Of a stretch of 64,000 bases of DNA, positions 1,491 to 20,814 are shown piece by piece. Each line of letters begins with the position of its first letter. Positions within the stretch are counted from its first letter, which is position 1. The DNA comes from Dictyostelium discoideum (taxonomy: Eukaryota): positions 4,736,001-4,800,000 of the forward strand of contig CM000151.3 in assembly GCA_000004695.1 (NCBI GenBank), in the 5' to 3' direction. Made by a program: the position numbers and the translations under genes. The notes beneath the pieces are model-generated. The model saw nothing but the letters and a program-made list of their open reading frames with translations, ran no database searches and was not told the origin of the DNA.

Positions 1491-2615
1491 ATGAAGGGTT
1501 CAATATTCTTACTCTTTATTTTCCAAATATTTAAATTTTCATCAAGTTATTCACATTATCCACATAAAAACCAGTTTTCATTTTATTCACCTACAAGTTT
1601 ATCATTTACATCTTCAAATTTCTCAAGTGGTAGTGGTAGTGGTAGTGGTGGTGCTAGTGGTAGTGGTGGTGGTGGTAATATTGGTAATAAATACAATAAT
1701 GAAAATAACAAAATTAATGAAGAGATTATTATTTCATGTATATATGATGACTATTTAAATTTTCAATACCAAGATTTAAGTAAGATCAATGGTATTTTAA
1801 TTAATGGTTTCAATAAAAATAGTACGAGTGATATATTTGTTAAAAATGTAAACTCTCAATATTATGATCAAAGTGATAGTAGCAATAATTTTCATTATTT
1901 TGATCAAGAGAATAATAATTTATCTCCACAATCTCAATTAAATAAGGAATGTCCATTCAATTTAAAGAATCCAATTCCAACATTTTCAAATTCAAGATAT
2001 TCAATCAAAATTGATAAATCATTTGATGTTTCTGATGAAATCACTTTAGTTTCAAAAAATAATTTCTTAAATTCAAATTCTGTAAGTTGTTTTCATTTTT
2101 ATAAAATTTTAAAAATATAATCTTCAATATTAATTTTTTTTTTTTTTTTTTTTTTTTAAAAAAGATTTCAAAATTAAAATTTAAAGTTTATATTCCAAAT
2201 AAAATTACCAATAAAATTAAAATACAACTTATAAATAGTTTAACTGGAAATAATGGTCCTAAAATACCATTGTTAAACACAATTGAAAATAATTATTTAA
2301 AACCATTCCCATGCCATCAATGGTTAGATGCATTTATTTTATTTAACGAAACCAATTATTATAATAATAATAATAATAATAATTATCCAATTTTTTACAA
2401 TGGTCTTAAAATTACAAGTAGTAATAGATCCCTTGATAACACTTGGATTGACGAAGTTTATATTGATGAAATTAAATTAATTTCAAACAATAATAAACAC
2501 AATAGTAATAAAAATGATAGAAAAAGAAATATTGATCAAACCAATGAAATTTATGATAAAATAAATATCAATAATAATAATTATAATATTAGAAAATTAT
2601 TTAGTATCTTAGATG

Positions 2616-2673
<58 letters not shown>

Positions 2674-3297
2674 AATTATTAATAGTTATAATACAATTAA
2701 TTCAAGGGCTGATATTGCATTAGGTGGTAATAGTGATGATCAAAGTGACATTTCATACTCTATCATTTGTAATAAACATATGAATGAATTGAATAATGAA
2801 ATCAAATGGAGATTTGAAGAAGGATCATCTAGTAGTTTAGTTGAAACAGCTAATGGGAATTTAATATTGGAAGGTTCAATTCATAGTATTTCAAAACATC
2901 AAGCTGATTATAATTTTAATTGTAAAACCAATTGGAAAATTAGAATTGAATTTTCACCAATTATCGATGATTATCAATATAATGGCAGAATGGAATTGGC
3001 ATCATTTGCATATACTAAAAATGGTGGTCCAATTGATACACTTTATTGGAAATATTATAAATTTGTAAATGGTTATTTAAGTGGTTTAGATTGTAATCAA
3101 GGTAAATTAATTCAAATTAATAATAATAATAATCATAATGAAAATAATAATGGAATTTTACAAATTGGTATTGGCGCAAATAATAAAAATGGTAGATTTG
3201 GTTTATCAGTATATGGATTACAGTTATCAATTGATAATGACAATACTTTTAATATTAATGTTGATTTAAATAACCAAAATAACCATTTATCTAATAA

Positions 3298-3328
<31 letters not shown>

Positions 3329-6300
3329 AATGAAGTTTTAGAATGTAATTGTCCAATTGGATTTATTTGTTTAAATGATGGAACATGTAAATTAAATTTT
3401 CAAAATGATGTTGATGAAGAATATATAGATTGTTCAACATTACAATGTCCATCAGGGTATGAATGTAAACTTGATAAGAATTCAAAGACTAGAGGATGTA
3501 TTGAACAGATTGGCCCACAAAATCTTAATCAAACTAATAAATGTTTGGGTAATTTAAAGTGTCCAGATGGATTTGGTTGCTGGCATAATTCAACTGATAA
3601 TACTTTAAATTGTAAACAATATAATAATCATAAATTTGATACAAATGTCATCGATAGTGAAAAACATAGACATCATTGTAGAAATGTTGATTGTCCAAAG
3701 AGTCATTACTGTAAAATTCAAAGAAATGGTTTACCAAGATGTTTCCCAAAAGTTAACCCATGTGAATTTGTAAGTTGTGATTGTAATCTAGAGTGTAGAG
3801 TAACATCATGTGGTGATGCTAAATGTTTTGCACCAGAGGAATGTTGTGAAGGTAAAGCTTGTATGGACACTAGAAATTATAGATGCGTAAAGATTAATGG
3901 CGTTGATGAATGTGTTAGAATCCCACCTTTGAAACCATTACCACCCCCACCCATTTTCTATGAAACACCATCACCAACATCTGCACCACCCACTGAAACA
4001 CCATCGCCAACTGACACACCAACTGATAAACCAACTATACCACCAACACCAACACCAACACCATCCAAAGAAATTACAGATTGTAGTCAAGTAATTTGTC
4101 AAGTTAATTATACATGTTTTGATATACAAAAAGGTGTTGGACCATTTACGCCAGTTTGTATACCCATTAATTATTGTGACGAGTATACCACTAGATTCGA
4201 TTTACAAGGTTATGTTTGGTTGGATGACAATGAAAATGGCTATAGAGATGTCAATGAAAATGGTGTTGAAACTGAACCAATTGGCGTAGAGGGTATCTTT
4301 TGTAATTTGGTATTCAGTACCGATCATTCACCCGCAAGAAATCATTATGGTGATATCATACCAGTATCAGTTACAAATTTGGATGGTTTCTTTAGTTTCA
4401 ATGATGTTGTACCAGGTTCTTATGTTATCGATTTCTATAATATCAAAGGTTATCATTGGACTCTACCATTCAATAGATACTTTAAGAATAGTAATTGGGT
4501 TAATAGTGATGGTACTTCTTTACCATTTGAATTACCACAATATAATGTTTCAAATCCAAATTTCATAATTTCACCACAATCCAATTTAATTTCAAAATCT
4601 ATAACTCTACCACAACCAATATTTTCAACTAATGCTATAGTCACTGTTAATAATGATGGTTTCGATGAGTTAGGTAGCAGTGGCAGTGGTAGTAGTGGTA
4701 ATAGTGGTAGTAGTGGTAGTGGTGGTAGTAGTAATGATAGCACAGAATCTCAATGGTCATCAGAATCAGAATCATCAGCATCTCTAATTACACCATCAAA
4801 TATCTGTCAAACTCATTTCACTGTTTCAAATATACTTGCTGGTCTTATTGTTGGTCCACAACCAACTCCATCCACTGATATACCAACAACAACAACAACA
4901 ACAACCTCTACATCAACAACAGGTCCAATTGAACCAACATCAACACCAACGCCAATAGTTGATGTTATTGATTATTATGGTATTGGTAAACAGGTATTCA
5001 TCGATTTCAATAATAATGGTATATTTGATAGTGGTATTGATAGACCAGTATCGGGTGTTGAAATTACATTAATTCAAAAAGGTTTCAGAGCATACAATCA
5101 TAAGGGTGATAAAGTACCAACAATAAAAACCGATACCAATGGTTTTTACTTTTTCGATGCTCTTGCACCTGGTGTATATAGAGTTTCATTGAATAATTTA
5201 CCACCACATGGTTATACCAATTCATTGTTAAACAAATATCCAATTGATACAAGTTCAAATACAAGTGCTCAATTCATAGTTTATTATCGTGTGAAAGATA
5301 ATATAAAATATAATGCTTCCGATTATCCATTGGCATCAAGTAATATTAAACCAAAGCTTGCACAATATATTAATTCATATGTCGATTTTGCTTTAGTACC
5401 TATTAATCCACCGATTGCAGTTGGTGATACCGTTTACTTTGATTCAAATCAAAATGGTAAACAAGATCCATTTGAAAAAGGTATCAAAGGTATTCAAGTC
5501 ACTCTAAAAGATTTAAAGAATGGTTATGAATATAAAACCATCACAGATGATAATGGTAAATATTTATTCGATCAAATGATTGAAAGTGATAATTATCAAT
5601 TACAATTCTCTGTACCAAATGGATTCCAAGTTGTCGATCATCCAAATTCAATAAAGAATGGAGTTTACACAATGGATACATTTCAATTATCTTCAAGTAC
5701 CACTCCACCAACTAATGCTTCATTAACAAAGGGTGTAGTTGGTAACAAGAAAGTTAATTCCGCTTATTTCGACGATTCAAAAGATGTACCATTGTATTTC
5801 GAAAATTCTTATGCAATTGGCCATCAAGCTTTTATCGATACAAATTTAGATGGATTGTATAAAAATGACCTTGATAAACCATTACCTGGCGTTGAAGTTA
5901 CTTTGGTTAATGCCGCTTCACCATCAACTCCAATTACAAATATCTTAGGTCAAATTGTTAGAACTGTTATCACTGATGCAAAGGGTTTTTATCAATTTGA
6001 TTTCTTAAAGCCAAATAACTACATTGTTCAATTTAAACCACCCACTGGGTTCAAAGTTACAAAGCCACCACCAAACACTGCAACCTATCCAGAATTAGGT
6101 TCATTAATAGATACAAAATCATTTAAAACACCATCATTAGATATTGTTACCTTATCGAAACCAAAGAATATAGAATACATTCGTCTTAATGTTCAAGCTT
6201 CAAATATTTTCGAAAGTGTAAATGCAGGTTTCTATATTCCACCAACATTTTCAATTGGTCATAGAGTTTGGTATGATACAAATGCTGATGGTATTATGGA

Positions 6301-9300
6301 TCCAACTGAAGAGGGTGTACCTGGTATTGTAGTTTCACTATATACTGATAAGAGTGAACCCGCTTATGATATCAATGATAATCTCATCATTCCAACGATA
6401 ACAGACTCTAAAGGTTTTTATTTATTAACCAAAATTCCAACAGGTAATTACTTCATTTCATTTAGTAATCTACCAAAAGGTTACACTTGGACCAAACAAA
6501 ATGTTCTCACACTTGATTCAGTTGGTTATGATTCACGTCCAAATGTTTTCACAGGATATACCTCTTTGTTTGAAATGTCAACAACAAGTCAATTGGTTAG
6601 AACTACTGTTCCTTCTGACAACTCACCAGATTTCTATATAAATCCAATCGAAAATGCTGGTATCATCAAGGGTAATAGAGGTCTGGTTATTAAATACGCA
6701 GTTGGTAGATACATATTTTATGACGATAATAGAAATGGAATTTTAGATGATTATGAAAACGGTGTTGGAGGTGTCATTGTTCAAATATTCACTTCAGCTG
6801 GTAAACCTGCTCTTGATTTTAATGGCAAGGTTATTCCACCCGCTGTAACCGATTCAACAGGTCGTTATATCATTGATAATTTATCACAAGGCGATTATAT
6901 CATTCAATTTTCAAATATTCCAAATGGTTATAACTTTGAAAATTTACCACCACCTTATCCAAATTATCTCAATGGTAGAATTGGTACATTTACTCTTTCG
7001 CCATCATCCTCTATCAATACAACAAATGTTATTAAAAAATTCAATCCTCCAAAACCTAATGGAGGTAAAAAAGTTTCATTCAGTCATAGTATCAATCAAA
7101 AATCTAGGAAATTATTAAATGATGGAATAATTGGACAAGACACATCTGTTGATTTATCAAATGTTATAGCTGGAGGTAGTACTGTCGATGGTGTTGACAT
7201 TCCAAATGTTATAGCTGGTGGTAGTACTGTCGATGGTGGTACTAGTGTTAATGGTGGTACTGGTAGTACTTCAACAACAACAGTTTCATCATCACCATCA
7301 TCATCATCTGATATTGGTAGTAGTAGTGATATCAGTAGTGAAGTATCATCATCGTTATCATCATCGCCATCATCATCAGAACAACCATCAGAGCAATCAT
7401 CATCATCATCAGAACAACCACCAGAAGATTCAATGGAAGAATATCCAGTTCATTATTATGAACCTGTATTTGAGACAACACCAGGTAGTTATCCATTGGA
7501 TAGTATTAAAGCAGAAAGAACAGATTTAACAAGAAATGCAGCAATTGTAAGAGCAGCACCATATGCATTTGGTCAAAAAGTATTTTTCATTGATAATAAT
7601 GGCAATGAAGTTGGTGTACCAGATGTAACGGTAACATTAGTTAATTCAAATGGTTTCCCAGTGACAAGTATTAATGGTGTAAATATGGTACCAACAAAGA
7701 CAGATTCAAAGGGTTCATACCGTTTCAATTTATTACGTGCTGGTTCTTATCATGTTGAATTTTCAAATATTCCAATTGGTTTTTCATTCTTTGACCCATT
7801 ATCAGGTAAAATCGATTTCAATCTTGTAAACACTGATCCAAATGTACGTGGTGCAATACCAGCCGATAAAGTACCAAAAGCAACCTATTATGATCAACAT
7901 GTTAATCTTCAATTGAATCCACCATTTATCTTTGCAATTGGTACCCGTGTTTGGAATGATACAAATAAGAATGGTCTCTATGAAATTGCTGAACCTGTTT
8001 TCCCAAATATTACAGTTAGACTATTTGATCAAAATTTACAACCAGTACTAGATAATTTTAACATTCAAGTGGAGCCAACTGTAACCAATGCATTGGGTCA
8101 ATATTATTTCGATAATTTACATAGTGGTTCATATATTGTCAAATTCGAAGTACCAACTCGTTATTATTTCGCACCACAATTGAAATCAATTGAAAATTCC
8201 AATGGAGTTGGTGTCAATTCAAAACCAAATAGTCAAGGTTATACAAGTGTTATTTCACTCTCACCAGATTCATTGGTTGAAGCTCCACCATCAGATTTTA
8301 ATTTCACCATTAGATCTTTAGTAGGTAATTTCCATATTGATGCTGGTTTAATTTATGATGAAAATTATGTCAAGTCATATGCGGTTGGTAGATATGTATT
8401 CTATGATCTCAATGATAATGGTATTATGGATAGTGGTGAAATGGGTGTACCAAATGTTACCGTTGAAATATTTAATCCAACTGGTCAACAAGTTTACAAT
8501 ATCAATGAATTACTAATTGGATCAACAACCACAGATTCCAATGGTTATTACCTTTTCGATGAAATTCAACCTGGTAGTTATATCATAAAGTTTAGTAATA
8601 TACCAAATGATTTAATGTTTGGAAATAAAACAAAACCAAATTCAAATACTGGCCTAACTGAACCATTCTTATTATTCCCAAAAGAACCTGCTATCAGACT
8701 TGTAAATAGTACCACTGATGTTGGTGTAAAAGCTCAAGCAGTCGATTTCACAGAGAATGCAGGTTTAATTAAAAAGGTAACATTTGCGATTGGTCATTAT
8801 GTTTGGTATGATATAAATTCAAATGGTCTTCAAGATTATCCAAATGAACCGCCAGCATATGGAGTTCCACTTAGATTACTTAAATGCAATTTGATTGGTA
8901 TAACTTATGATACTTGTTTCACAGTGATAAATACAACTACAACCGATCAAAATGGTCTTTACTATTTTGATAATTTATCACCCGGTTTATATAAACTATT
9001 ATTTATGAATCAACAAGGCATTTTCGAAACTACAACTCCTTTCGCTGGTAATGGTACAAATGATAGTAAAGCAATCGATGAAGCTATCACTGGAATTAGA
9101 TTATCAATATATACAAAGAATGTAACGAAAACAGATTCAAATCTTGACCCAATGATAAAGGCACCCTTCATTGATAGAACATTGAATGTTGGTATTCTAA
9201 AACCACCAATGTTTAGTATTGGTCATAAAGTTTGGTATGATACCAATAAAAATGGTAAAATCGATCTAAAAGAACAACCAGCACCAAATGTAACCATTTA

Positions 9301-12300
9301 TCTCAAACGTGCAAAAGAGGTCAACTTTGAATATTCCTTTGATCTCTATGGTAAACCTATGATCGCTAAAACAAATGAAACAGGTGATTATTGGATCAAT
9401 AATATTCCACCAGGTCTTTACATTGCAAAATTCTTTCCACCAAATGATACAAGATTCACCATTCAAATGAATGATAATAGTGCAAATGTTTTCGGTTCTT
9501 CATATGCAATCTATTTGTTCTATAAAGTTCCAGGTATTCATCCATACAATTTAAAAGTTGATATTGGTGCGGTGAATGCAAGTTATGTTTACTCAAAAGT
9601 TAATGCAGGTTTATTAAAAGGTTTAGTTGATATTCGTCTTTATGCAGTTAGTGGTTATGTTTACAACGATACCAATTCCAATGGTATTAGAGATCCCGGT
9701 GAAAATGGTGTTAATGGTACAATTGTAACATTATTGGATATAAATGGTAATACAATGGTTGATGCTGATTCTTATCCAATTAATTCATATACAACGGGTC
9801 CTGATGGATACTATAAATTCGATGATTTCTCATTTGGTAAATATATTATAACATTTAGCGGTGTACCAGATTTAATCTATCAATTCTATAAACCAGATGA
9901 TCAACAACATTTAAATCATTCCACACTTTCAAATATAACAATTTGGTCACCAGATAATCCAATGGTTGTAAATGCAACACTCAGTGATCATGTCAACGCT
10001 CAATATATTCTTAGAGAACAAAATAAAGGTATTATTAGAGTGATCACTTATGCAATTGGAGGTAAGGTTATACCAGATTTTAAAAACACAACATATAAGG
10101 ATAGTGGTTACGCGGGTGGTGCTGTTATAGTTCAATTATACCGTAACAATTCAATAGCAACAGATCTTCGTGGTAATCCAATACCATCGGTATTGACCAA
10201 TGTATTGACTGGTGAATATCTTTTCGATAATGTACCAATCTTAGAGGGTTATCAAGTAATGTTTTCAAGTCCACCACCAGGTTGGATTTTTGAAAAGTAT
10301 AGAATCACTCAAACCCCATTCATTCAACTTGATCTTTTACCATCATTCAATTTACCAAAATCAAATCCAAAATTAATAGATAAGAAACTTTATCCAAATA
10401 TCTTTGCAACCTATGGTGTATTGGATCAAGATACTATTATCTCACCCACTCTTTTTGGAATTGGTAAGAATACATTCATTGATGTTGAAAATAGTGGTCT
10501 CGAATCAATACCTTTAATTCCATTAGGGGGTGTAGTTGTAACACTTTACAATAGTGTATTCGAAAGAGTATTTGATGCATTTGGTAATTTGGTTAAAGAG
10601 AAAACCACGGGTGAAGATGGTGAATATTCTTTTGAAGACCTTTACTCTGGTCAATATATTGTTCATTTTGGTTTAGTTGAAGGTTATTCATTCACTCAAC
10701 AGTATGCTGGAACAGATCCTGAAATTGATTCGAATGCAAGTCCTGTAGATGGTTATTCAGAAATCATTCAATTAGATTCAATGAATAATGAATTGATTTT
10801 AATACCATTGGAATCTAGAAACAACACATTATTCTGTGATCCAACAATTGATGGTGGTTATGTTTCACTCTCACCTCAAGGTTTCATTAGTGGTATGACA
10901 TATATTGATTATAATGCTGATGGTGTATTCACACCAAATTCACGTGATAAACCATATCCAAATATTACGGTTTCAATCTACACTGGTGATGATAGTAGAT
11001 TAGTTGCAACCGCTCAAACTGATAAGAAAGGTTTTTACTCATTCTCACATTTATTCATATCCACTCAATATCAAGTTGTTTTCTCAGGTATTCCTCAAGG
11101 TTATTATACATCATTCCAAGCTGATACTGTACAATTCCCAATCGCAACAAAGACTGGTGTAAATTTAGGTATCATTAAACCATTGGAATATTGTCAAGAT
11201 GATATTAAAATAATTACAACTTGTTTTGTTCGTGGTGATTCAAATGATGATTTACCAGCTGTCGTTCAATTCCCTTATACTGCTTATTCCGATTTGAATG
11301 GTGATAATGGACAAAAAGTTGATCTAGTAACAATGAGTGAAACTAAAACAGTTTATGGTCTTGGATATGATCGTAAAGAGAATACAATCTATCTTTCGCC
11401 ATATAAAAAGCAATTTTCTAGTTTAAATTCAAAAACTTCATCAACTATCTTTAAGAAATCATTATCAACAGGTGCCCTATCAGCTTATGTAAATTTAGCA
11501 ACAGTTTTAGGTTTTGACTTTTTAGCTCCAAATGGTAAAGTTTATGGTGATTCTCAAACCTATCGTGTATTATTTGGTGATTTGGATATTATTGGTGATT
11601 ATATTTGGGTTACAAATCTTTATAGAAACATTGTAGTTAAAATACCATTACGTCAAACTCCAACTAGAGAAAACATTAAATTAGTAAACATCACTCATAA
11701 TTGTGGTCCAGATCCATTTAGAATCTTTGGTTTAGGTTATAATGGTTCCAATGTATTCGTTGGTGGTGTTTGTGAAGGTTCAGTTTCGAAGGATATAAGA
11801 AATGTAATTGGTGTAATTAAAGTGATTAGCTCTGATGAAACTTCATTCTCTGATGTTTTAACAATTCCAATGAATTATCCACGTGGTCGTTTACAAACTA
11901 GAATCATGTTTTTAAATGATATGACACCCATTTTCTCATCGGTTCAAAATTCAACATGGCAAGTTTGGAATGATACAGTGGGTAGTTTTAAACCTCAACC
12001 ACAGATAACCGATATTACATTCATTGGCGATGGTGGTAATATGGTAATATCAATGAAAGATCGTGAAGCTGATAGTCAAAGTGTTACGCCTGCAGGTGAT
12101 ATATTAATGGCATGTAAAGATTCAAATGGTGTTTATCAATTGGAGAGTGCTGGTGTTTGTGGTGGGTTAATTGGTACAAATCCAATTTCAATTGGTACAA
12201 TGATTGAACAAGGACCAGGTGGTGGTGAATTTTTCGATGACAATTTTAGTGATCGTGATTGGCAACATGATGAAACCACTTGGGGTTCTTCATATTATTT

Positions 12301-12865
12301 ACCAGGTAGTGGTGAAGTCATTGGTGGAGCATACGATCTTTTATCAACCAATGAAGCAATTGTAAAACATTGGTCAGTCTATAATGGTCGTGTTTTATAT
12401 GGTTTCATTTTAATTCATGGTGCTGGTTTAGATTATGTTTTCAATAAAGTTAATGGTTTAGGTGATATGGATGCAAATTGTAGATTACCAAATACTTATA
12501 TTGGCAATTACGTTTGGTATGATCTAAATAAAAATGGTCTTCAAGATCCAAATGAAAAAGGAATGGCAAATATTACTGTTCAATTATTTAGTGCCGCTAA
12601 TTCAACATTCATTAATTCAACTCTAACCGATTCCTCTGGTAATTACAATTTCCAAGTCATTTCAGAGTTTAAATATAGAGTTCATTTCGTTGCTCCAAAA
12701 GGTTTCACTTATTCTCCTATCGTTACTGTTAGTAGTGATCCTAATGATAAAAGAGATTTGGAAAAAATCAATAGTTTACCTGATTCAAAAGGTGACGCAT
12801 ATTTCTTTGCTAATGGTAATGGTGAAAATACTCAAGATATTGATTGTGGTTTTATAAGAATTTAA
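1491..12865 (+). CDS. Giant secreted colossin-like protein (3763 aa): signal peptide, EGF-like Cys-rich module, Pro/Thr linker, about 16 CnaB/SdrD-B-like repeats. Two exons: 1491..2081 and 2165..12865.
   Basis: The ORF-track ORF 1491..2120 ends just after a GTAAGT at 2082. The large ORF 2270..12865 'starts' at a TTG, and its open frame extends upstream to an AG at 2163-2164. Joining in phase 0 gives ...NNFLNSNS|ISKLKFKVYIPNK... The intron 2082..2164 is 83 bp and A/T-rich, and the stop is TAA at 12863-12865. The N-terminus MKGSIFLLFIFQIFKF is a signal peptide. There are Cys-rich repeats of the form C..L.CP.G..C, then a PT-rich linker (TPSPTSAPPTETPSPTDTPTDKPTIPPTPTPTPS). Motifs such as YVWYDxNxNGxxDxxExGVxGVxVxL...TDxxGxYxFxxLxPGxYxV recur about 16 times; these are Cna-B / SdrD B-like folds typical of Dictyostelium colossins. 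A unique ~750-aa domain follows, then a terminal repeat. Confidence 0.8.
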
Positions 12866-13132: not shown

Positions 13133-16100
13133 ATGGAATATAATGAAATATTATTTTGGAAAGTATTTCATAATAAATTTATATTTAATATTATAATTGA
13201 ACAAATTTCAAATGATCAATTAGAGTATGAACGTATTGAATTATATAAAATTGGTAATAGAATTAAATTTAAAGATATTCAATCATTGAAATTAATTGTA
13301 TCAAAAAAACAATTTGAATTATTAAAATGTAAATTAGAACATAATGATTTCATTTTATATAATAGAGAATCAATTGATCAATTAATACATTATGCACCAA
13401 TTGAAATAATAAAATTATTCATAGAGAAATATAAAATCAAACAACAAGATCCGCAATTAGATAAATTGAATGTAATGATTGATTTAGTACTCCATAGTAT
13501 AAAAAATAATAATTTAGAATGTTTAAGATATTTTTTAATTGAATTACAATTACCAGTTGAAAGAACTGCATTTGAATATACCTTAAAAGAGAAATCAATT
13601 GAATTCATTGATTTAATATTAAACTCGAATCAATTTAAATTGGAAGAATCTACAAGGAAATTCTGTTTAAAATTAATATCAAACAATTCAAGAAATTTCA
13701 ATGACCTAATTGAATATGTAATTTATAAAAGACCAGAATTAAATTATTTTACAACTAAATCAATAGTTGAAAATTTTAATCAACAAAAATTATCAAAATA
13801 TCCAGGTTATTTAAATACTCCACAAATTTTAGATTTTTTTTTATTTTATAAAATCAAATCAAAAGAAACAAAATTAAAATTATTAGAAATGGGTTGTGTT
13901 TCAACGGTTAAACCAGAATTTATATATTCAAATAAATTAAAACCAACCAATTGGAAAGATTATGATGAAGTTGAATTTTACCTTTTTATAATTTTAAAAC
14001 TTGGTGAACTTGAGAAATGTATAGCAAAAGATACAACTTTAGCAATTATTAGGAATGAATTTGAAGGGATTAAAGATTGTTCAAATTTAAAAACACAGGA
14101 TAAATGTAAAAAGTTACATGAATTAATAATAATTAAATTATTTCCTTATTTCTCATCACATATTTATAGAGATTATTTTGAACTTTATGATCAACCTATA
14201 CCAAATTCAGATTTTCTTTTCACTTTTCAAATTACATTTTCAACATTTAGTGTAAATGGGTTAAATTATTTATTAGATTTAAAAAAAAAAAAAAAATCAA
14301 TTCAAACCACAACAACAACAACAACAATTTATATTAATGAAATTACAAAAAAAATAGATACAAATAATGAAAAAGAAGTTTTAGAATTTTTAAAAATATA
14401 TTTTAAATCAAAACATTTACTACCAGAACTTAATAAAGTTTCAATTGATAATATGTTTTTACATGTATTAAATCATTGTTCAATTGAAACTTTAAATGAA
14501 ATTTTAAAATTAAAACCATCATCACAAGATGATATAATTAAAGGATTTTTAAGTGGTTTTTTACCAGATAATAATTTTCAATCATCAAGAGAAAAAGCAG
14601 ATGAATTTATTAAAACAATTCATATTAATAAAGATAATGATCGTTTTATTTGGTTCTCTGAGAAATTAGTAAAGAAATTATCATCAACTGCAGAAAGAAA
14701 TTTTATTAATTATAAATGTTTAAATTATTTGAATATTTCAACGAAAAATCATGTAGACTTTTTAATTGAAAATAAACCAGAAACTGTAATAATTCCATTA
14801 GTTAAAAAATATTTTGAAATTGAAAGTTTAGAATTAATAAATTATTTTGAAAAGAAATTAAATCAATCGAAACCATCAGCAAATCATTATTATTATCTTT
14901 ATTTTAAATCATTATTTAATGGTGATTTTAAAACTTTTCAAGAAATTGATGATATTAAAAATTTAAAATTGGAATTCCAATCAGCTGATTTCAAATCAAT
15001 TAAAATTAATGACCCATTGTTGATTGATAAAGTCATTGAAAATATTAATAAAAGTAATCTTAAAAGTTTAACAAGTGATTCAAAAATTAAACTTTTTAAA
15101 TTCCTATTAAAACAAAATGATGAAAAATTACAATCAAAAGTAATTGGAAGCCTACAGTTTAATTTATTCCCATTAGAATCAATGTTAGTTTTATTAGATA
15201 ATATATTGGATGTAAACATTGAAGCTTCAAATGCAATCATTAATAATTTAGTAATCAATGGTGAATTTGAATTATCATTATTGGTTTTAGCTGTAAATCA
15301 ATTTGAAAAGAGTAGATTATTTATAATTTATAAATCTTTGGATGGTAAACTAATTAAAAATGGATATAATGCAAAAGATAAATTAATACCATTTATTAAA
15401 TCGTTATTTAATAAATTGGAAGCAAATTTAAATGATGACTTTCCATCACTTTCAGATAGTCAAGAAATTCAATTCATCTTCTCTTATCTTTACAAATTAT
15501 TAATACAATGCGATGATATAACATTAGACTTAATAAATAGTGTACGTCAATTTTATTTAAGCAATGATTTAATCATTACCGATGATTTGTTTAGTTTATC
15601 TTGTTATCTTTCATTAAGATCTTATCAATTCATTAAATATTTATCTGCTATGAAAATAAGATTAAATAATGGTATTTTCTTTTTAAATGGTGTTTGGAAT
15701 TTTGAATTCGATAGTTCTGATCAAAATTATACACTAGACTTCAATTTAATGTTAAAAGAAAATAAAGTACCCATTGATAAAGATTTCTTTGATGTAATTT
15801 ATCAAACAACCAAATCTAAAGATAACAACTTTGATTTCTTTAAGAAAATTGTATTCCACAAATTAAGAAATTTAATGATTGAATTTCAAAGATTGCCTCG
15901 CCCACTTCCAATTGCTGTTGAAGTTAATTTGTTTATAGAGTTAAATAGAGCAGATCTGGTATTGGAATTAGCAGAGATAGAAGTTTCACTAAATAAACCA
16001 TTCCCAATTGAAACCGTTGGTGGTTTTATGAACATTGCTACATTGGATCAACTTAAACAATTAATTTCATTAATAGGACAAACTGAATCAAAACGTATTA

Positions 16101-16672
16101 AATATCTATTTTTAAAGAATTCCATTATTTCCCGTAAATTTGATTTCATTGATTACTTTTTGAAAGAATCAATTTTATTCATTGAAGAATTGACAAAAGG
16201 TTCATTAGATAGCAATGAATTTAAATTTTTCAAAGAGATCTTAGCTTCAAATGATATTGAATTGGTTGAATATTTATTAAAAAATTATAGAGGTCAAGAT
16301 TTTCAGACAATCGCCACCACCACTACCTCGATTACCACCACTACTACCAATCCTCAATCTGTTGTTATAACAGGATTAATTGATTTATTTAAAGACTTTC
16401 AATATTCTCAAAATTTATATCATAATAATTTTCAAGTTACAATGGATAATGGTTTAATCGATATGTTTAATCTCTTATCTCGACATTTTCTATTCGTTCC
16501 AAAAAAAGATAATATCCTTCACACAATTAGACAAGGAAGATTTAAATTGGTTGATTATTTATATAAAAATGATTATTTCGAACATCTTGGTGAAGAAACT
16601 ATAACCTCTATTAATGATTTTGTAAAAGATCAATATCCATATGATTATTTTTCTTTAAAAAAAAACAAATAA
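13133..16672 (+). CDS. Hypothetical lineage-specific protein, 1179 aa, single exon.
   Basis: An uninterrupted ATG-initiated ORF with typical Dictyostelium codon usage, a TAA stop, and internal poly-T (TTTTTTT) and poly-K/N tracts. The N-terminus (EILFWKVFHNKFIFNIIIEQI) resembles the conserved N-terminal motif shared by many Dictyostelium-specific gene families. I recognise no characterised domain. Confidence 0.65.
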   Translation: MEYNEILFWKVFHNKFIFNIIIEQISNDQLEYERIELYKIGNRIKFKDIQSLKLIVSKKQFELLKCKLEHNDFILYNRESIDQLIHYAPIEIIKLFIEKYKIKQQDPQLDKLNVMIDLVLHSIKNNNLECLRYFLIELQLPVERTAFEYTLKEKSIEFIDLILNSNQFKLEESTRKFCLKLISNNSRNFNDLIEYVIYKRPELNYFTTKSIVENFNQQKLSKYPGYLNTPQILDFFLFYKIKSKETKLKLLEMGCVSTVKPEFIYSNKLKPTNWKDYDEVEFYLFIILKLGELEKCIAKDTTLAIIRNEFEGIKDCSNLKTQDKCKKLHELIIIKLFPYFSSHIYRDYFELYDQPIPNSDFLFTFQITFSTFSVNGLNYLLDLKKKKKSIQTTTTTTTIYINEITKKIDTNNEKEVLEFLKIYFKSKHLLPELNKVSIDNMFLHVLNHCSIETLNEILKLKPSSQDDIIKGFLSGFLPDNNFQSSREKADEFIKTIHINKDNDRFIWFSEKLVKKLSSTAERNFINYKCLNYLNISTKNHVDFLIENKPETVIIPLVKKYFEIESLELINYFEKKLNQSKPSANHYYYLYFKSLFNGDFKTFQEIDDIKNLKLEFQSADFKSIKINDPLLIDKVIENINKSNLKSLTSDSKIKLFKFLLKQNDEKLQSKVIGSLQFNLFPLESMLVLLDNILDVNIEASNAIINNLVINGEFELSLLVLAVNQFEKSRLFIIYKSLDGKLIKNGYNAKDKLIPFIKSLFNKLEANLNDDFPSLSDSQEIQFIFSYLYKLLIQCDDITLDLINSVRQFYLSNDLIITDDLFSLSCYLSLRSYQFIKYLSAMKIRLNNGIFFLNGVWNFEFDSSDQNYTLDFNLMLKENKVPIDKDFFDVIYQTTKSKDNNFDFFKKIVFHKLRNLMIEFQRLPRPLPIAVEVNLFIELNRADLVLELAEIEVSLNKPFPIETVGGFMNIATLDQLKQLISLIGQTESKRIKYLFLKNSIISRKFDFIDYFLKESILFIEELTKGSLDSNEFKFFKEILASNDIELVEYLLKNYRGQDFQTIATTTTSITTTTTNPQSVVITGLIDLFKDFQYSQNLYHNNFQVTMDNGLIDMFNLLSRHFLFVPKKDNILHTIRQGRFKLVDYLYKNDYFEHLGEETITSINDFVKDQYPYDYFSLKKNK

Positions 16673-18212: not shown

Positions 18213-18847
18213 ATGTCACTGATATTGGATATAAATAAAAATTCAACTGAAAATAAAAACAATCTTGAATCAACAGGAATATTATTTCAAAAAGTTTGGG
18301 AGAATGCAGTGATAAAAAATAAAATTTTATCATTTTTAAAAGTAAAGACAACAACATCTTTGTTATTACCAAATTTTAGAGGTAACAAGATTAAATTATC
18401 AGTAGAAGGATTTATGCCAAAAGATGATATGTCAAATAAAACACAAGTATTAAAAGAAAATAAATATTCCAAATTCGATGAAATGGTTAATGTATCCAAG
18501 ATGATCAGTTATGGCAATAAAGAATTATTAAAATACAAAGTATCAATAAATTATGAAGACTTACATTTCTCAAATAATGATATACATATCATACTTCAAA
18601 ATTTTAAAGATGAAAATTACGATTATCAATTCTATCAAGATCTTTTTAATAATTATCCATTTTATTTCACTTTAGACGAAACAAAAAAGAATAAACTATT
18701 AAATAAAATAATTGTAAACGATAATTTATTAGCATTAAAAGTTCTCATCAATCAACTCAACCCAATCATTACATACAATAAATTTATAATGGCAGTTATA
18801 AAAGGATCTATAGATATTGTAAATTATCTTTCAAATTCAACTACTAC

Positions 18848-18909
<62 letters not shown>

Positions 18910-19760
18910 TTAAATTAAATGAAGATGATATTATTAATGTATTCAATTTTATTTTTTTCGATGAAACTGAAGATATGGATTTTGATCCTGATTTAGAGGA
19001 GGAAGATTATTTTCCTCCTTTAGTGGAAACAAAATACCCAATAATGGATTATAGATTTTTTCCATTGGATAATATAGAGATTGTCTTTTTAAAATCGATA
19101 CGCGATAAAAAAAATATGATTCAATGTTTAATGAATTTAGGTGTAAAGCTTCCAACAAAGATTAAAGAACCAATTAAATATTTATTTGATTTATCCATGT
19201 GTGAAGATCTTTGTTTTTTCCCTAATATTACATTAAAATGGCTAATTGAAATATATGAATGTATTCATTATGTATCACCATTGGTTTCTAATGAATCATT
19301 ATCAGAGGCAAATAAAAAGCTTTCAGATTTATTATATTCAAAAGAAAAGTTTGAATCAATAAAGAAATTATTCAGTGAAATCGAATTAAATTCAACTTTA
19401 AACCGTTTAGATTCAAGAGAAGAAATCAAACAAATGTATAAAATACTCACAATGGTTTCTCATATTCATCCTATGGATTACCAAATTAGATATGAAGAAA
19501 TAAACAATGGATTCAAAAGTAATTTTAAACTTATTTTTAAATATAGTGACCCAACATATCAAAAATTATTTATTGAAAATTTTATTAGCTATATAGAAAA
19601 TAATGATTTTTGTGATGAAAGCTGTAATGAAACTTATTTCTTGGTCAATTCACTTATCGATAATGATAAAGTAGAATATTTAAAAATGGCTTTAAATTCA
19701 TTCGATTATTCAGATTCGTATTCGGATTCAGATGTTATTATCAATATTAAATCATTTTAA
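18213..19760 (+). CDS. Hypothetical lineage-specific protein, 515 aa, with a 22-residue poly-N tract. Possible paralogue of the 13133..16672 gene by N-terminal motif.
   Basis: An ATG-initiated ORF. The N-terminal segment LFQKVWENAVIKNKILSFLK parallels LFWKVFHNKFIFNIIIEQI in the upstream gene. A coding (AAT)n repeat lies at 18845..18905. The stop overlaps the start of the next ORF. Confidence 0.55.
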
Positions 19761-20751
19761 AACTAAATATCCAGAAGATTATTATAGTCAATGTAGTAAA
19801 TTAGATTTCAAGGAAAATCAAAAACTATTTTCAAATGATTTCATTTGTAACAACTATCAAGATTTTAAAAAGAATATATTAAAATGTAATAAAGATAACC
19901 CATTAAATTTCTTTCCAGTTTCCAAAAATTTGAAATTAAATCAATTCGTTGCAATTTTAGAATCAACACCACCTCAACAAAAGTATTCATGTTTATTAAA
20001 TCCAGAAATTTTGGCATGGATCTATGAGAATAGAGAATGTGATTTAAAATCTGGTAGATGTATACAACCAAATTTTGTAACATTATTCAGATATTTATTT
20101 TACACCAACCAATTTTCAAAAGCATTAAATGATATTGATTATTTTAATAATCCTGGTGACCTTGATTATTTTAATTTTAAAAATAATCATAATGATGAAA
20201 AAATCCATTCTATTGAAGAAATAATAAAAGCCATGAAATCAAAAAAAGAATTCAAACAACAACAAATTGATGAATTTAATACAATTTTTAAAATAACACT
20301 ATTATTCATAATTCCAGGTTTAAAAAAACTTATAAAATCAATAATCAAATCTAATAATTTTAATTATTTAGAAATACTTTACAACTACATTAATAACACC
20401 AGTAAAGAAAAGAAATTTGAAAATCTATTGGAAGAATTAAAAGATTTAATATTTCAGTATATTAAAAAGTACAATAAAATCAGTTGTTTAAAATTTTTAT
20501 TGAAATTAGATCAAGATAATAAGTCATTCTTTTCTGAAGATTTGTTAATATTTTTTTACAAAGAAATAAATACAAATTATTCAATAAATCAAGAAATTTC
20601 AAATATTTTAAAAATTTATTTCAATTTTAACATTGAAGATAAAATAAAAGAAGAAGATGAAAAAGAAGAAGAAGAAGAAGAAGAAGAAAAAGAAGAAGAA
20701 GAAGAAGAAGAAGAAGAAGAAGAAGAAGAAGAAGAAGAAGAAGAAGAAGAA

Positions 20752-20783
<32 letters not shown>

Positions 20784-20814
20784 CGATGATGATGACGAGA
20801 TGAAGGAGGATTAA
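19732..20814 (+). CDS. ORF of 360 aa ending in a ~50-residue poly-E/D tail. It is either a separate gene or the frameshifted continuation of the 18213..19760 ORF.
   Basis: The ORF starts at an ATG embedded in GATGTT, 29 nt before the TAA of the preceding ORF. No GT..AG intron explains the +1 shift. The (GAA)n microsatellite 20649..20795 encodes the EEEE... tail, followed by ...DDDDDEMKED*. Confidence 0.4.
20649..20795 (+). repeat. Coding (GAA)n microsatellite of ~48 units, giving a poly-Glu tail.
   Basis: gaagaagaagaa... with a few aaa/gag interruptions, inside ORF 19732..20814. Confidence 0.9.

Follow-up and report, generated by a model that had tools for sequence, protein, structure and literature searches.

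Dictyostelid colossins are Cna_B-repeat proteins of probable bacterial origin, and the family is known from D. discoideum, D. purpureum and D. fasciculatum as well as from P. pallidum and A. subglobosum, in which it is expanded (PMC3188802, PMC4334915). A comparison of four dictyostelid genomes recovered a colossin D/Cna B family in each of them (PMC4334915), while colA was named both as a candidate for horizontal transfer of Cna_B and as a slug protein with a structural role (PMC3188802). The B domains of staphylococci, which bind three Ca2+ and withstand more than 2 nN, build a stalk that is stabilised by calcium and mechanically extremely strong (PMC6232131).

The gene studied here is located in D. 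discoideum within a window of 64,000 nucleotides, i.e. the whole stretch of DNA that was analysed. Its product, a member of the previously described colossin family, is largely ordinary; like the colossins, it is a giant dictyostelid protein of Cna_B/SdrD_B-type repeats. With the B domains of S. aureus SdrD and S. epidermidis SdrG (PDB 4JDZ) it has an EF-hand-like loop and the motif T-D-x-x-G-x-Y in common. However, it is devoid of the N2N3 ligand-binding A region, the Ser-Asp repeat and the LPXTG anchor of these proteins. Furthermore, the colossin resides in a eukaryotic host, contains 16 B-type domains instead of two to five, and shows a degenerate calcium loop in five of its repeats.

Gene structure and family membership

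The program-made list of open reading frames contained two ORFs on the + strand (1491-2120 and 2270-12865), which are connected via an intron. The gene model comprises:

1491..2081 (+): exon 1, aa 1-197, starting with ATG; at the N-terminus it lines up with the D. purpureum orthologue
2082..2164 (+): intron of 83 nt, phase 0, GTAAGT...AAAAAG; its removal restores the frame
2165..12865 (+): exon 2, aa 198-3763 and the stop codon

Joining of the two exons resulted in a product of 3763 aa, the length given for a two-exon gene in the first-pass annotation of this DNA; the only stop codon lies at its end. The alignment with the D. purpureum orthologue DICPUDRAFT_58166 is unbroken over the splice junction. 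The orthologue is full-length, shares 49.4% identity and possesses the same 16 repeats and the propeller described below. The proposed fit to the Dictyostelium colossin family was corroborated by the AT-rich, host-like gene with its intron, the 3763 aa, the 16 repeats and this orthologue.

Regarding the family member, colA was excluded indirectly, as its orthologue in D. purpureum is protein 96318 (PMC3188802, table 2), whereas the orthologue found here is DICPUDRAFT_58166. Moreover, colA has been described with hundreds of repeats, the present protein has 16. Colossin B is presumably 3763 aa long.

N-terminal region

Upstream of the repeats, the following features were identified:

1491..1547 (+): probable signal peptide MKGSIFLLFIFQIFKFSSS; hydrophobic N-terminus, conserved in the orthologue, presumed cleavage site
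1737..2488 (+): head block H1, aa 83-305, crossing the intron; identity with D. purpureum 49%
2489..2704 (+): Asn-rich low-complexity spacer, aa 306-377, with ATA/AAT trinucleotide arrays
2705..3259 (+): second head block (H2), aa 378-562; identity with D. purpureum 42%
3341..3919 (+): six Cys-rich modules, aa 590-782; four of six spaced C-x4-5-C-P-x-G-[FY]-x-C-x9-10-C
3920..4069 (+): Pro/Thr-rich mucin-like linker, aa 783-832; absent from D. purpureum
4070..4177 (+): seventh Cys module, after the linker, aa 833-868

Apart from the hydrophobic N-terminus, no segment resembling a membrane span exists in the whole protein (maximum Kyte-Doolittle mean over 19 residues, 1.52), nor is there a hydrophobic C-terminus suited to a lipid anchor. 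The earlier description of a giant secreted amoeba protein made of SdrD-B-type repeats is supported.

The head is lineage-restricted. It had been estimated at about 330 aa but actually extends over approximately 590 aa with two conserved blocks. H1 harbors a species-specific insert at about aa 100-155 and revealed no sequence match in Pfam, NCBIfam or PDB. H2 did not match any family in Pfam or NCBIfam, and its single-sequence AlphaFold model reached a pLDDT of 34, too low for use. A word-indexed homology search with the head yielded no match either, which is weak evidence because the search also missed the D. purpureum orthologue present in the collection. When the head and the Cys-rich region were compared to Pfam (E<=10), NCBIfam and PDB sequences, only low-complexity or chance matches were obtained.

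The Cys-rich block (aa 585-870) contains 32 of the 51 Cys residues of the protein. As annotated before, six modules precede a PT linker, but a seventh follows it, and their designation as EGF-like/Cys-knot repeats found no match to an EGF-type Pfam model even at E<=10; only TILa appeared (E 0.066). Comparison of the region with PDB sequences gave no match. In UniRef, the orthologue is named 'Follistatin-like domain-containing protein'. The provisional label 'EGF-like' is taken only from the spacing of the Cys residues and the database name of the orthologue.

SdrD_B repeats and linkers

The tandem repeats and their linkers are arranged as follows:

4178..4606 (+): SdrD_B R1, aa 869-1011; Pfam SdrD_B E 3.8e-07 (30.7 bits), own HMM E 2.5e-31
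4607..4954 (+): linker 1, aa 1012-1127, rich first in Ser/Gly and then in Thr/Pro
4955..7042 (+): SdrD_B R2-R6, aa 1128-1823; Pfam and repeat HMM
7043..7540 (+): linker 2, aa 1824-1989, rich first in Gly/Ser/Thr and then, as an acidic stretch, in Ser/Glu
7541..10843 (+): SdrD_B R7-R14, aa 1990-3089; Pfam and repeat HMM

An HMM built from the colossin repeats found 16 copies, 15 ahead of the propeller and one behind it, in accordance with the previously reported 15 or so tandem beta-sandwich repeats and a final one. Both kinds of linker mentioned there, S/G/T-rich and acidic S/E, were recovered. Pfam SdrD_B (PF17210) matched in 1 + 14 stretches, the 14 stretches with E 1.3e-213 and 695.7 bits, and the gathering threshold of 29.7 bits was passed by R1 as well as by the remaining stretches. 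R5-R6 matched the solved B domains of S. aureus SdrD (E 2e-20). The outcome that the first-pass annotation had named as refuting its assignment, a failure of the repeats to score with Cna-B/SdrD-B HMMs, did not occur. Of the Cna-B/SdrD-B type suggested therein, the SdrD_B part was supported by the 695.7 bits, whereas Cna_B (PF05738), the model of CnaB domains with a Lys-Asn isopeptide bond and a catalytic acidic residue, was absent among the Pfam matches at E<=0.01, the related models being SdrD_B, CarboxypepD_reg and SpaA.

The strict calcium loop D-x-[DN]-x-[DN]-G-x-x-[DE] occurs in 11 of the 16 repeats and is missing in five; a relaxed form is present in 12, and Ca2+ binding is a prediction from these motifs. 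R5-R6 are among the repeats with an intact loop, R13-R14 among those with a degenerate one. The motif T-D-x-x-G-x-Y was detected in 15 repeats. Mean pairwise identity among the repeats amounts to 26%, and TRF did not disclose any long-period DNA repeat array. These two results rule out a recent expansion of the repeats; therefore the duplications are old.

The propeller and its flanking repeats

The C-proximal part of the protein is composed of three domains:

10862..11158 (+): SdrD_B R15, pre-propeller bacterial type, aa 3097-3195; type-specific HMMs
11159..12481 (+): six-bladed beta-propeller domain 'X', aa 3196-3636, about 440 aa, between R15 and R16
12482..12862 (+): SdrD_B R16, post-propeller bacterial type, aa 3637-3763; type-specific HMMs

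The domain between R15 and R16 is a six-bladed beta-propeller. It had been regarded as a unique domain of about 750 aa (11160-12450) belonging to no obvious family. Instead, it measures about 440 aa and has thousands of homologue clusters: with a cut-off of E<=1e-3, a propeller profile hit 4305 protein clusters (formed at 50% identity), of which 3162 also passed E<=1e-30. Among the best 150 of the 4305 matches, to which the taxonomic view applies and beyond which other eukaryotes may occur, 149 are not the orthologue of this gene, and all nameable ones are bacterial. The relatives named belong to Caldilineaceae, Chloroflexaceae, Herpetosiphon, Roseiflexus, Ca. Neomicrothrix and Streptomyces, some of them with an LPXTG anchor. 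A search with the single propeller sequence against bacterial proteins gave E values from 1.3e-16 to 4.5e-6 at a coverage of 83-100%, and a profile of bacterial propellers and the window's own domain matched the window with 3.2e-169, a value that is partly circular owing to the inclusion of that domain.

A curated model of this propeller is absent from both Pfam-A (2025 copy) and NCBIfam 20, and the Pfam models of YWTD/LDL-receptor class B and NHL repeats did not match it at E<=10. Compared to the six-bladed YWTD/NHL propellers (nidogen G3, LDL receptor, LRP4/6), the identity is 10-13% with no match at the sequence level, and insertions make the colossin propeller about 160 residues larger. 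The likeness is one of fold, not of family membership.

Close counterparts are giant bacterial surface proteins annotated as 'SdrD B-like domain-containing' from Chloroflexota, Actinomycetota and others, which share the SdrD_B-propeller-SdrD_B module with conserved junctions. Examples are Herpetosiphon WP_164689784 and Caldilineaceae MFN8488963. Over the full length, the propellers of this group are 25-30% identical to that of the colossin. While the bacterial proteins often carry two to six copies of the module plus DUF11, LPXTG or other C-terminal sorting parts, the colossin has a single, C-terminal one together with amoeba-specific head, Cys-rich and Asn-rich parts.

To assign the flanking repeats, motif counts and type-specific HMMs were used instead of the colossin-repeat HMM, which detected the bacterial upstream SdrD_B in just 31 of 209 cases. 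Of 146 bacterial propellers, 125 are flanked by SdrD_B calcium-loop motifs on both sides. R15 scored 74.9 bits with the HMM of the bacterial upstream type and 36.1 bits with the downstream type, whereas R16 reached 80.6 bits with the downstream type and 57.5 bits with the upstream type. The junction motif of R16, NGLGD.D...IGN.VW.D.N.NG.QD, is common to colossin and bacteria. R15 (75%) and the propeller (71%) are the regions best conserved with D. purpureum, as against 49% for the whole protein. As judged by these profile and motif comparisons, R15-propeller-R16 was shown to be homologous, in each of its domains and at each junction, to a module present in thousands of clusters of large bacterial surface proteins. 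The unit looks as if it was inherited whole, because R15 matches the bacterial upstream type and R16 the downstream type.

Origin and proposed function

The data are best explained by a native giant extracellular protein of the colossin family, which contains a module derived from bacteria and serves as a matrix rod with binding ends (probability roughly 0.75). A dictyostelid ancestor would have taken up a bacterial gene or fragment carrying the SdrD_B-propeller-SdrD_B module. Its SdrD_B domains would then have increased in number at an early date, and a head as well as Cys-rich and mucin-like parts of amoeba type would have been added. From the taxonomic distribution among the best 150 of the 4305 matches we infer the direction and the timing of the transfer. 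In the multicellular stage, the protein would be secreted into the extracellular matrix, where the SdrD_B domains, loaded with calcium, may make up a long rod that is mechanically tough and has two flexible hinges; the propeller at one end and the head and Cys-rich region at the other may tie matrix components or cells together. We infer this matrix role by analogy from the published remark on colA and from the domain content.

That colossins represent a textbook-style case of a eukaryotic extracellular matrix built from bacterial adhesin parts has already been published. The expansion of adhesin folds in an amoeba, which the first-pass annotation found notable, is not new either. Added here is the recognition of the C-proximal domain, taken for an orphan before, as a beta-propeller, apparently from the same bacterial source as the repeats; it seems to have arrived in a three-domain unit, where conservation within the protein is highest. 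The hypothesis of a transfer gains in precision, the propeller is marked as the first part to be tested for a partner or an activity, and a large family of bacterial propellers without a curated model is brought to notice. Tentatively, and at less than even odds, SdrD_B-six-bladed propeller-SdrD_B might be a distinct, widespread and uncurated bacterial surface module that has the dictyostelid colossin as its only eukaryotic carrier and was acquired as one piece. If so, a genetically tractable amoeba would offer a route to the binding target or activity of the propeller.

The propeller might also be an enzyme, namely a hydrolase or lyase that depends on calcium, attacks a polymer of the matrix or of prey and is held on the SdrD_B stalk in colossin and bacteria alike. 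Its invariant residues D301, R302, D314, E357 and H370 are Asp, Arg, Glu and His, which would fit a metal or catalytic site as well, and E372 is a further invariant residue; nevertheless we consider an enzyme rather unlikely and a binding end the better reading. Still less probable is a surface or secreted adhesin that captures bacteria, be it prey or symbionts, in place of a structural matrix component. Although the set of domains is that of bacterial adhesins and the propeller module is found on bacterial cell-surface proteins with LPXTG anchors, the protein lacks both a membrane span and a hydrophobic C-terminus for a lipid anchor, and the sole remark on the family in the literature gives colA a structural role in the slug (PMC3188802).

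Host context

The gene is flanked on the same contig by genes for TCF25, Prp3, a RasGAP, a ubiquitin hydrolase and a kelch-BTB protein, all eukaryotic. Its GC3 of 0.10-0.165 equals that of these neighbours. A compositional trace of transfer was considered for the repeat region and rejected, since the higher GC content of this region sits in codon positions 1 and 2 while its GC3 is that of the neighbouring genes. That the gene is a bacterial contaminant of the assembly or was inserted very recently, at which the large share of domains otherwise seen in bacteria could hint, has a negligible probability and is already refuted by the spliceosomal intron, the GC3, the housekeeping genes of eukaryotic type nearby, the host-typical Asn-rich tracts and the identical architecture of the D. 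purpureum orthologue. Because of its intron, host-like GC3, eukaryotic neighbours and full-length orthologue, the gene is native to the dictyostelid host.

A domain shared with giant bacterial proteins

The C-proximal part of the colossin-type protein, which the first-pass annotation had described as a unique domain of approximately 750 aa, is a six-bladed beta-propeller of little more than half this size. It lies between R15 and R16, the last two of the sixteen SdrD_B repeats:

11159-12481, + strand: propeller, aa 3196-3636 (~440 aa)

No match to this domain was obtained in Pfam (E<=10), NCBIfam or the PDB sequences. A sequence search, on the other hand, yielded bacterial proteins with 21-33% identity to the domain, the alignments covering 83-97% of its length. 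In these proteins, the domain precedes or follows SdrD_B, sometimes with DUF11 or an LPXTG anchor thereafter. Scanning 1.84 billion cluster representatives with a propeller profile gave 4305 matches at E<=1e-3 (3162 at E<=1e-30), and the claim that the domain has no relatives had to be abandoned. Many of the best 150 of these 4305 matches are 2000-6000 aa long and contain two to six stretches that match the profile. Carriers that could be named belong to Caldilineaceae, Chloroflexaceae, Herpetosiphon, Roseiflexus, Ca. Neomicrothrix and Streptomyces. The only dictyostelid identified among the best 150 of the 4305, about 30 of which were inspected or named, was the D. purpureum orthologue DICPUDRAFT_58166 (3513 aa; 49.4% identity to the colossin over aa 64-3762). 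The bacterial carriers (P0017, P0019, P0021, P0024 and others in the scan) reach 6215 aa and up to six matched propeller stretches, at most four of them full-length copies by an HMM built in this analysis. In some of these carriers the C-terminus is a short conserved tail (e.g., '...CLP..V.RN'), a possible sorting signal.

The similarity extends to the neighboring repeats. In 146 bacterial propeller instances with sufficient flanking sequence, the SdrD_B calcium-loop motif was found upstream in 132, immediately downstream in 137 and on both sides in 125. Bacteria and amoeba have in common both the entry junction ('...VNLGI..P..YC...') and the exit junction ('...NGLGD.E..C....IGN.VW.D.N.NG.QD'). 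When separate HMMs were built for the bacterial upstream-type and downstream-type domains, R15 was the best upstream-type match among the 16 repeats (74.9 bits vs 36.1 for the downstream type) and R16 the best downstream-type match (80.6 vs 57.5 bits for the upstream type), while the remaining repeats gave weaker, mixed scores. Conservation in D. purpureum is also highest in R15 (75%) and the propeller (71%), compared to 57% for R7-R14 and 36-50% for most other regions. The simplest reading would be that the unit R15-propeller-R16 was inherited whole from bacteria and still forms the functional core. That the transfer went from bacteria to amoeba is read from the distribution of the matches rather than from a rooted tree.

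Gene structure and native status

The gene is spliced from an ATG-initiated reading frame (1491-2120, + strand) and a second + strand frame of 3531 codons ending at 12865. The splice sites were assigned on the basis of GTAAGT starting at 2082 and AAAAAG ending at 2164:

2082-2164, + strand: intron, 83 nt, phase 0

The spliced frame comprises 3763 codons with one stop, at its terminus, exactly the length proposed in the first-pass annotation. The D. purpureum orthologue aligns without interruption over the splice junction, and the alignment also takes in both N-termini. The G+C content of the whole window is 24%; that of the repeat region is higher (0.31-0.35), the excess residing in codon positions 1 and 2. 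GC3 is 0.10-0.165 throughout, equal to that of ten neighboring ORFs, and neighbors encode TCF25, Prp3, a RasGAP, a ubiquitin hydrolase, a kelch-BTB protein and an Rpc31-like protein. Thus, we concluded that the colossin gene is a resident eukaryotic gene and that contamination is ruled out as its source. Directly upstream of the start codon, within poly-A tracts, a 113-bp unit is present in 2.1 copies (1223-1458, 89% matches), which could be a duplicated promoter element.

The SdrD_B repeats

The annotated giant repeat protein was confirmed, apart from its domain sizes, and the repeat type had been named correctly. With Pfam SdrD_B (PF17210), a single stretch was matched within aa 198-1100 (E 3.8e-07), and a further 14 within aa 1101-3763 (E 1.3e-213); the related models CarboxypepD_reg and SpaA gave weaker overlapping matches, and Cna_B was absent from the Pfam matches at E<=0.01. 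An HMM made from the protein's own repeats detected 16 copies and no others in the rest of the window:

R1-R8, + strand: starts at aa 877, 1136, 1282, 1414, 1560, 1709, 1998, 2121
R9-R16, + strand: starts at aa 2270, 2405, 2548, 2691, 2827, 2962, 3105, 3642
aa 1012-1127 and aa 1824-1989: two low-complexity linkers interrupting the repeat rod

Since the copies are only 16-41% identical (mean 26%) and the coding DNA contains no long-period array according to Tandem Repeats Finder, the duplications are old. The D. purpureum orthologue has the same 16 copies. S. aureus SdrD B domains of known structure were matched by R5-R6 with an E value of 2e-20. Of the 16 repeats, 11 retain the EF-hand-like loop D-x-[DN]-x-[DN]-G-x-x-[DE] and 15 retain T-D-x-x-G-x-Y. 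In staphylococcal SdrG/SdrD, three Ca2+ are bound by each B domain, which unfolds only above 2 nN (PMC6232131). By analogy, the colossin repeats may resemble them in Ca2+ binding and mechanical strength.

The N-terminal region

Because the N-terminus is hydrophobic and the rest of the protein lacks any membrane-span-like segment, the colossin is probably secreted. Its head, previously set at approximately 330 aa, extends to about aa 590 and contains two conserved blocks separated by an Asn tract:

aa 83-305: H1, 49% identity to D. purpureum
1788-1955, aa 100-155: insert of ~55 aa in H1, absent from the D. purpureum orthologue
aa 378-562: H2, 42% identity to D. purpureum
aa 590-782: six Cys-rich modules
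3920-4069, aa 783-832: Pro/Thr linker, absent from the D. purpureum orthologue

From this comparison, the linker and the H1 insert are species-specific low-complexity gains. Searches of Pfam (E<=10), NCBIfam and the PDB sequences gave nothing for the head, and its single-sequence AlphaFold model was poor (pLDDT 34). A profile search also found nothing, a weak negative because the same tool failed on the known orthologue. The word-indexed protein search missed D. purpureum XP_003292819 despite 49-71% identity to the queries and its presence in the collection; its empty results are not reliable for a protein so AT-rich and of such low complexity.

Six EGF-like/Cys-knot repeats had been proposed. 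Their number and Cys-rich nature held, four of the six having the spacing C-x4-5-C-P-x-G-[FY]-x-C-x9-10-C, but no EGF-type model matched. The only outside support for the module type is the orthologue's UniRef name, 'Follistatin-like domain-containing protein'. A seventh module follows the Pro/Thr linker.

Relation to known colossins and neighboring genes

The gene fits the colossin family, as had been suggested. Colossin A (Cna_B domain) is among the listed candidate bacterial transfers (PMC3188802), and in a comparison of four dictyostelid genomes (PMC4334915) the orthologous group 'Colossin D, Cna B-type' is represented by 5, 33, 22 and 7 members. The gene is not colA, since it has a different orthologue and 16 repeats rather than the hundreds of colA. 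The overall finding is essentially known biology. What is added is modest: the C-proximal domain folds as a propeller, belongs to a module found in bacteria and lacks a curated model.

The next gene downstream (13133-16672, + strand) is an uninterrupted ORF of 1179 codons; its G+C content is very low (0.22), and Pfam yielded no family for it at E<=0.001. Further downstream, ORFs 18213-19760 and 19732-20814 (+ strand) overlap in different frames. The latter contains an RNA polymerase III Rpc31-like region (E 7.9e-07, slightly below the Pfam cut-off), and the two may represent one intron-containing gene or two genes.
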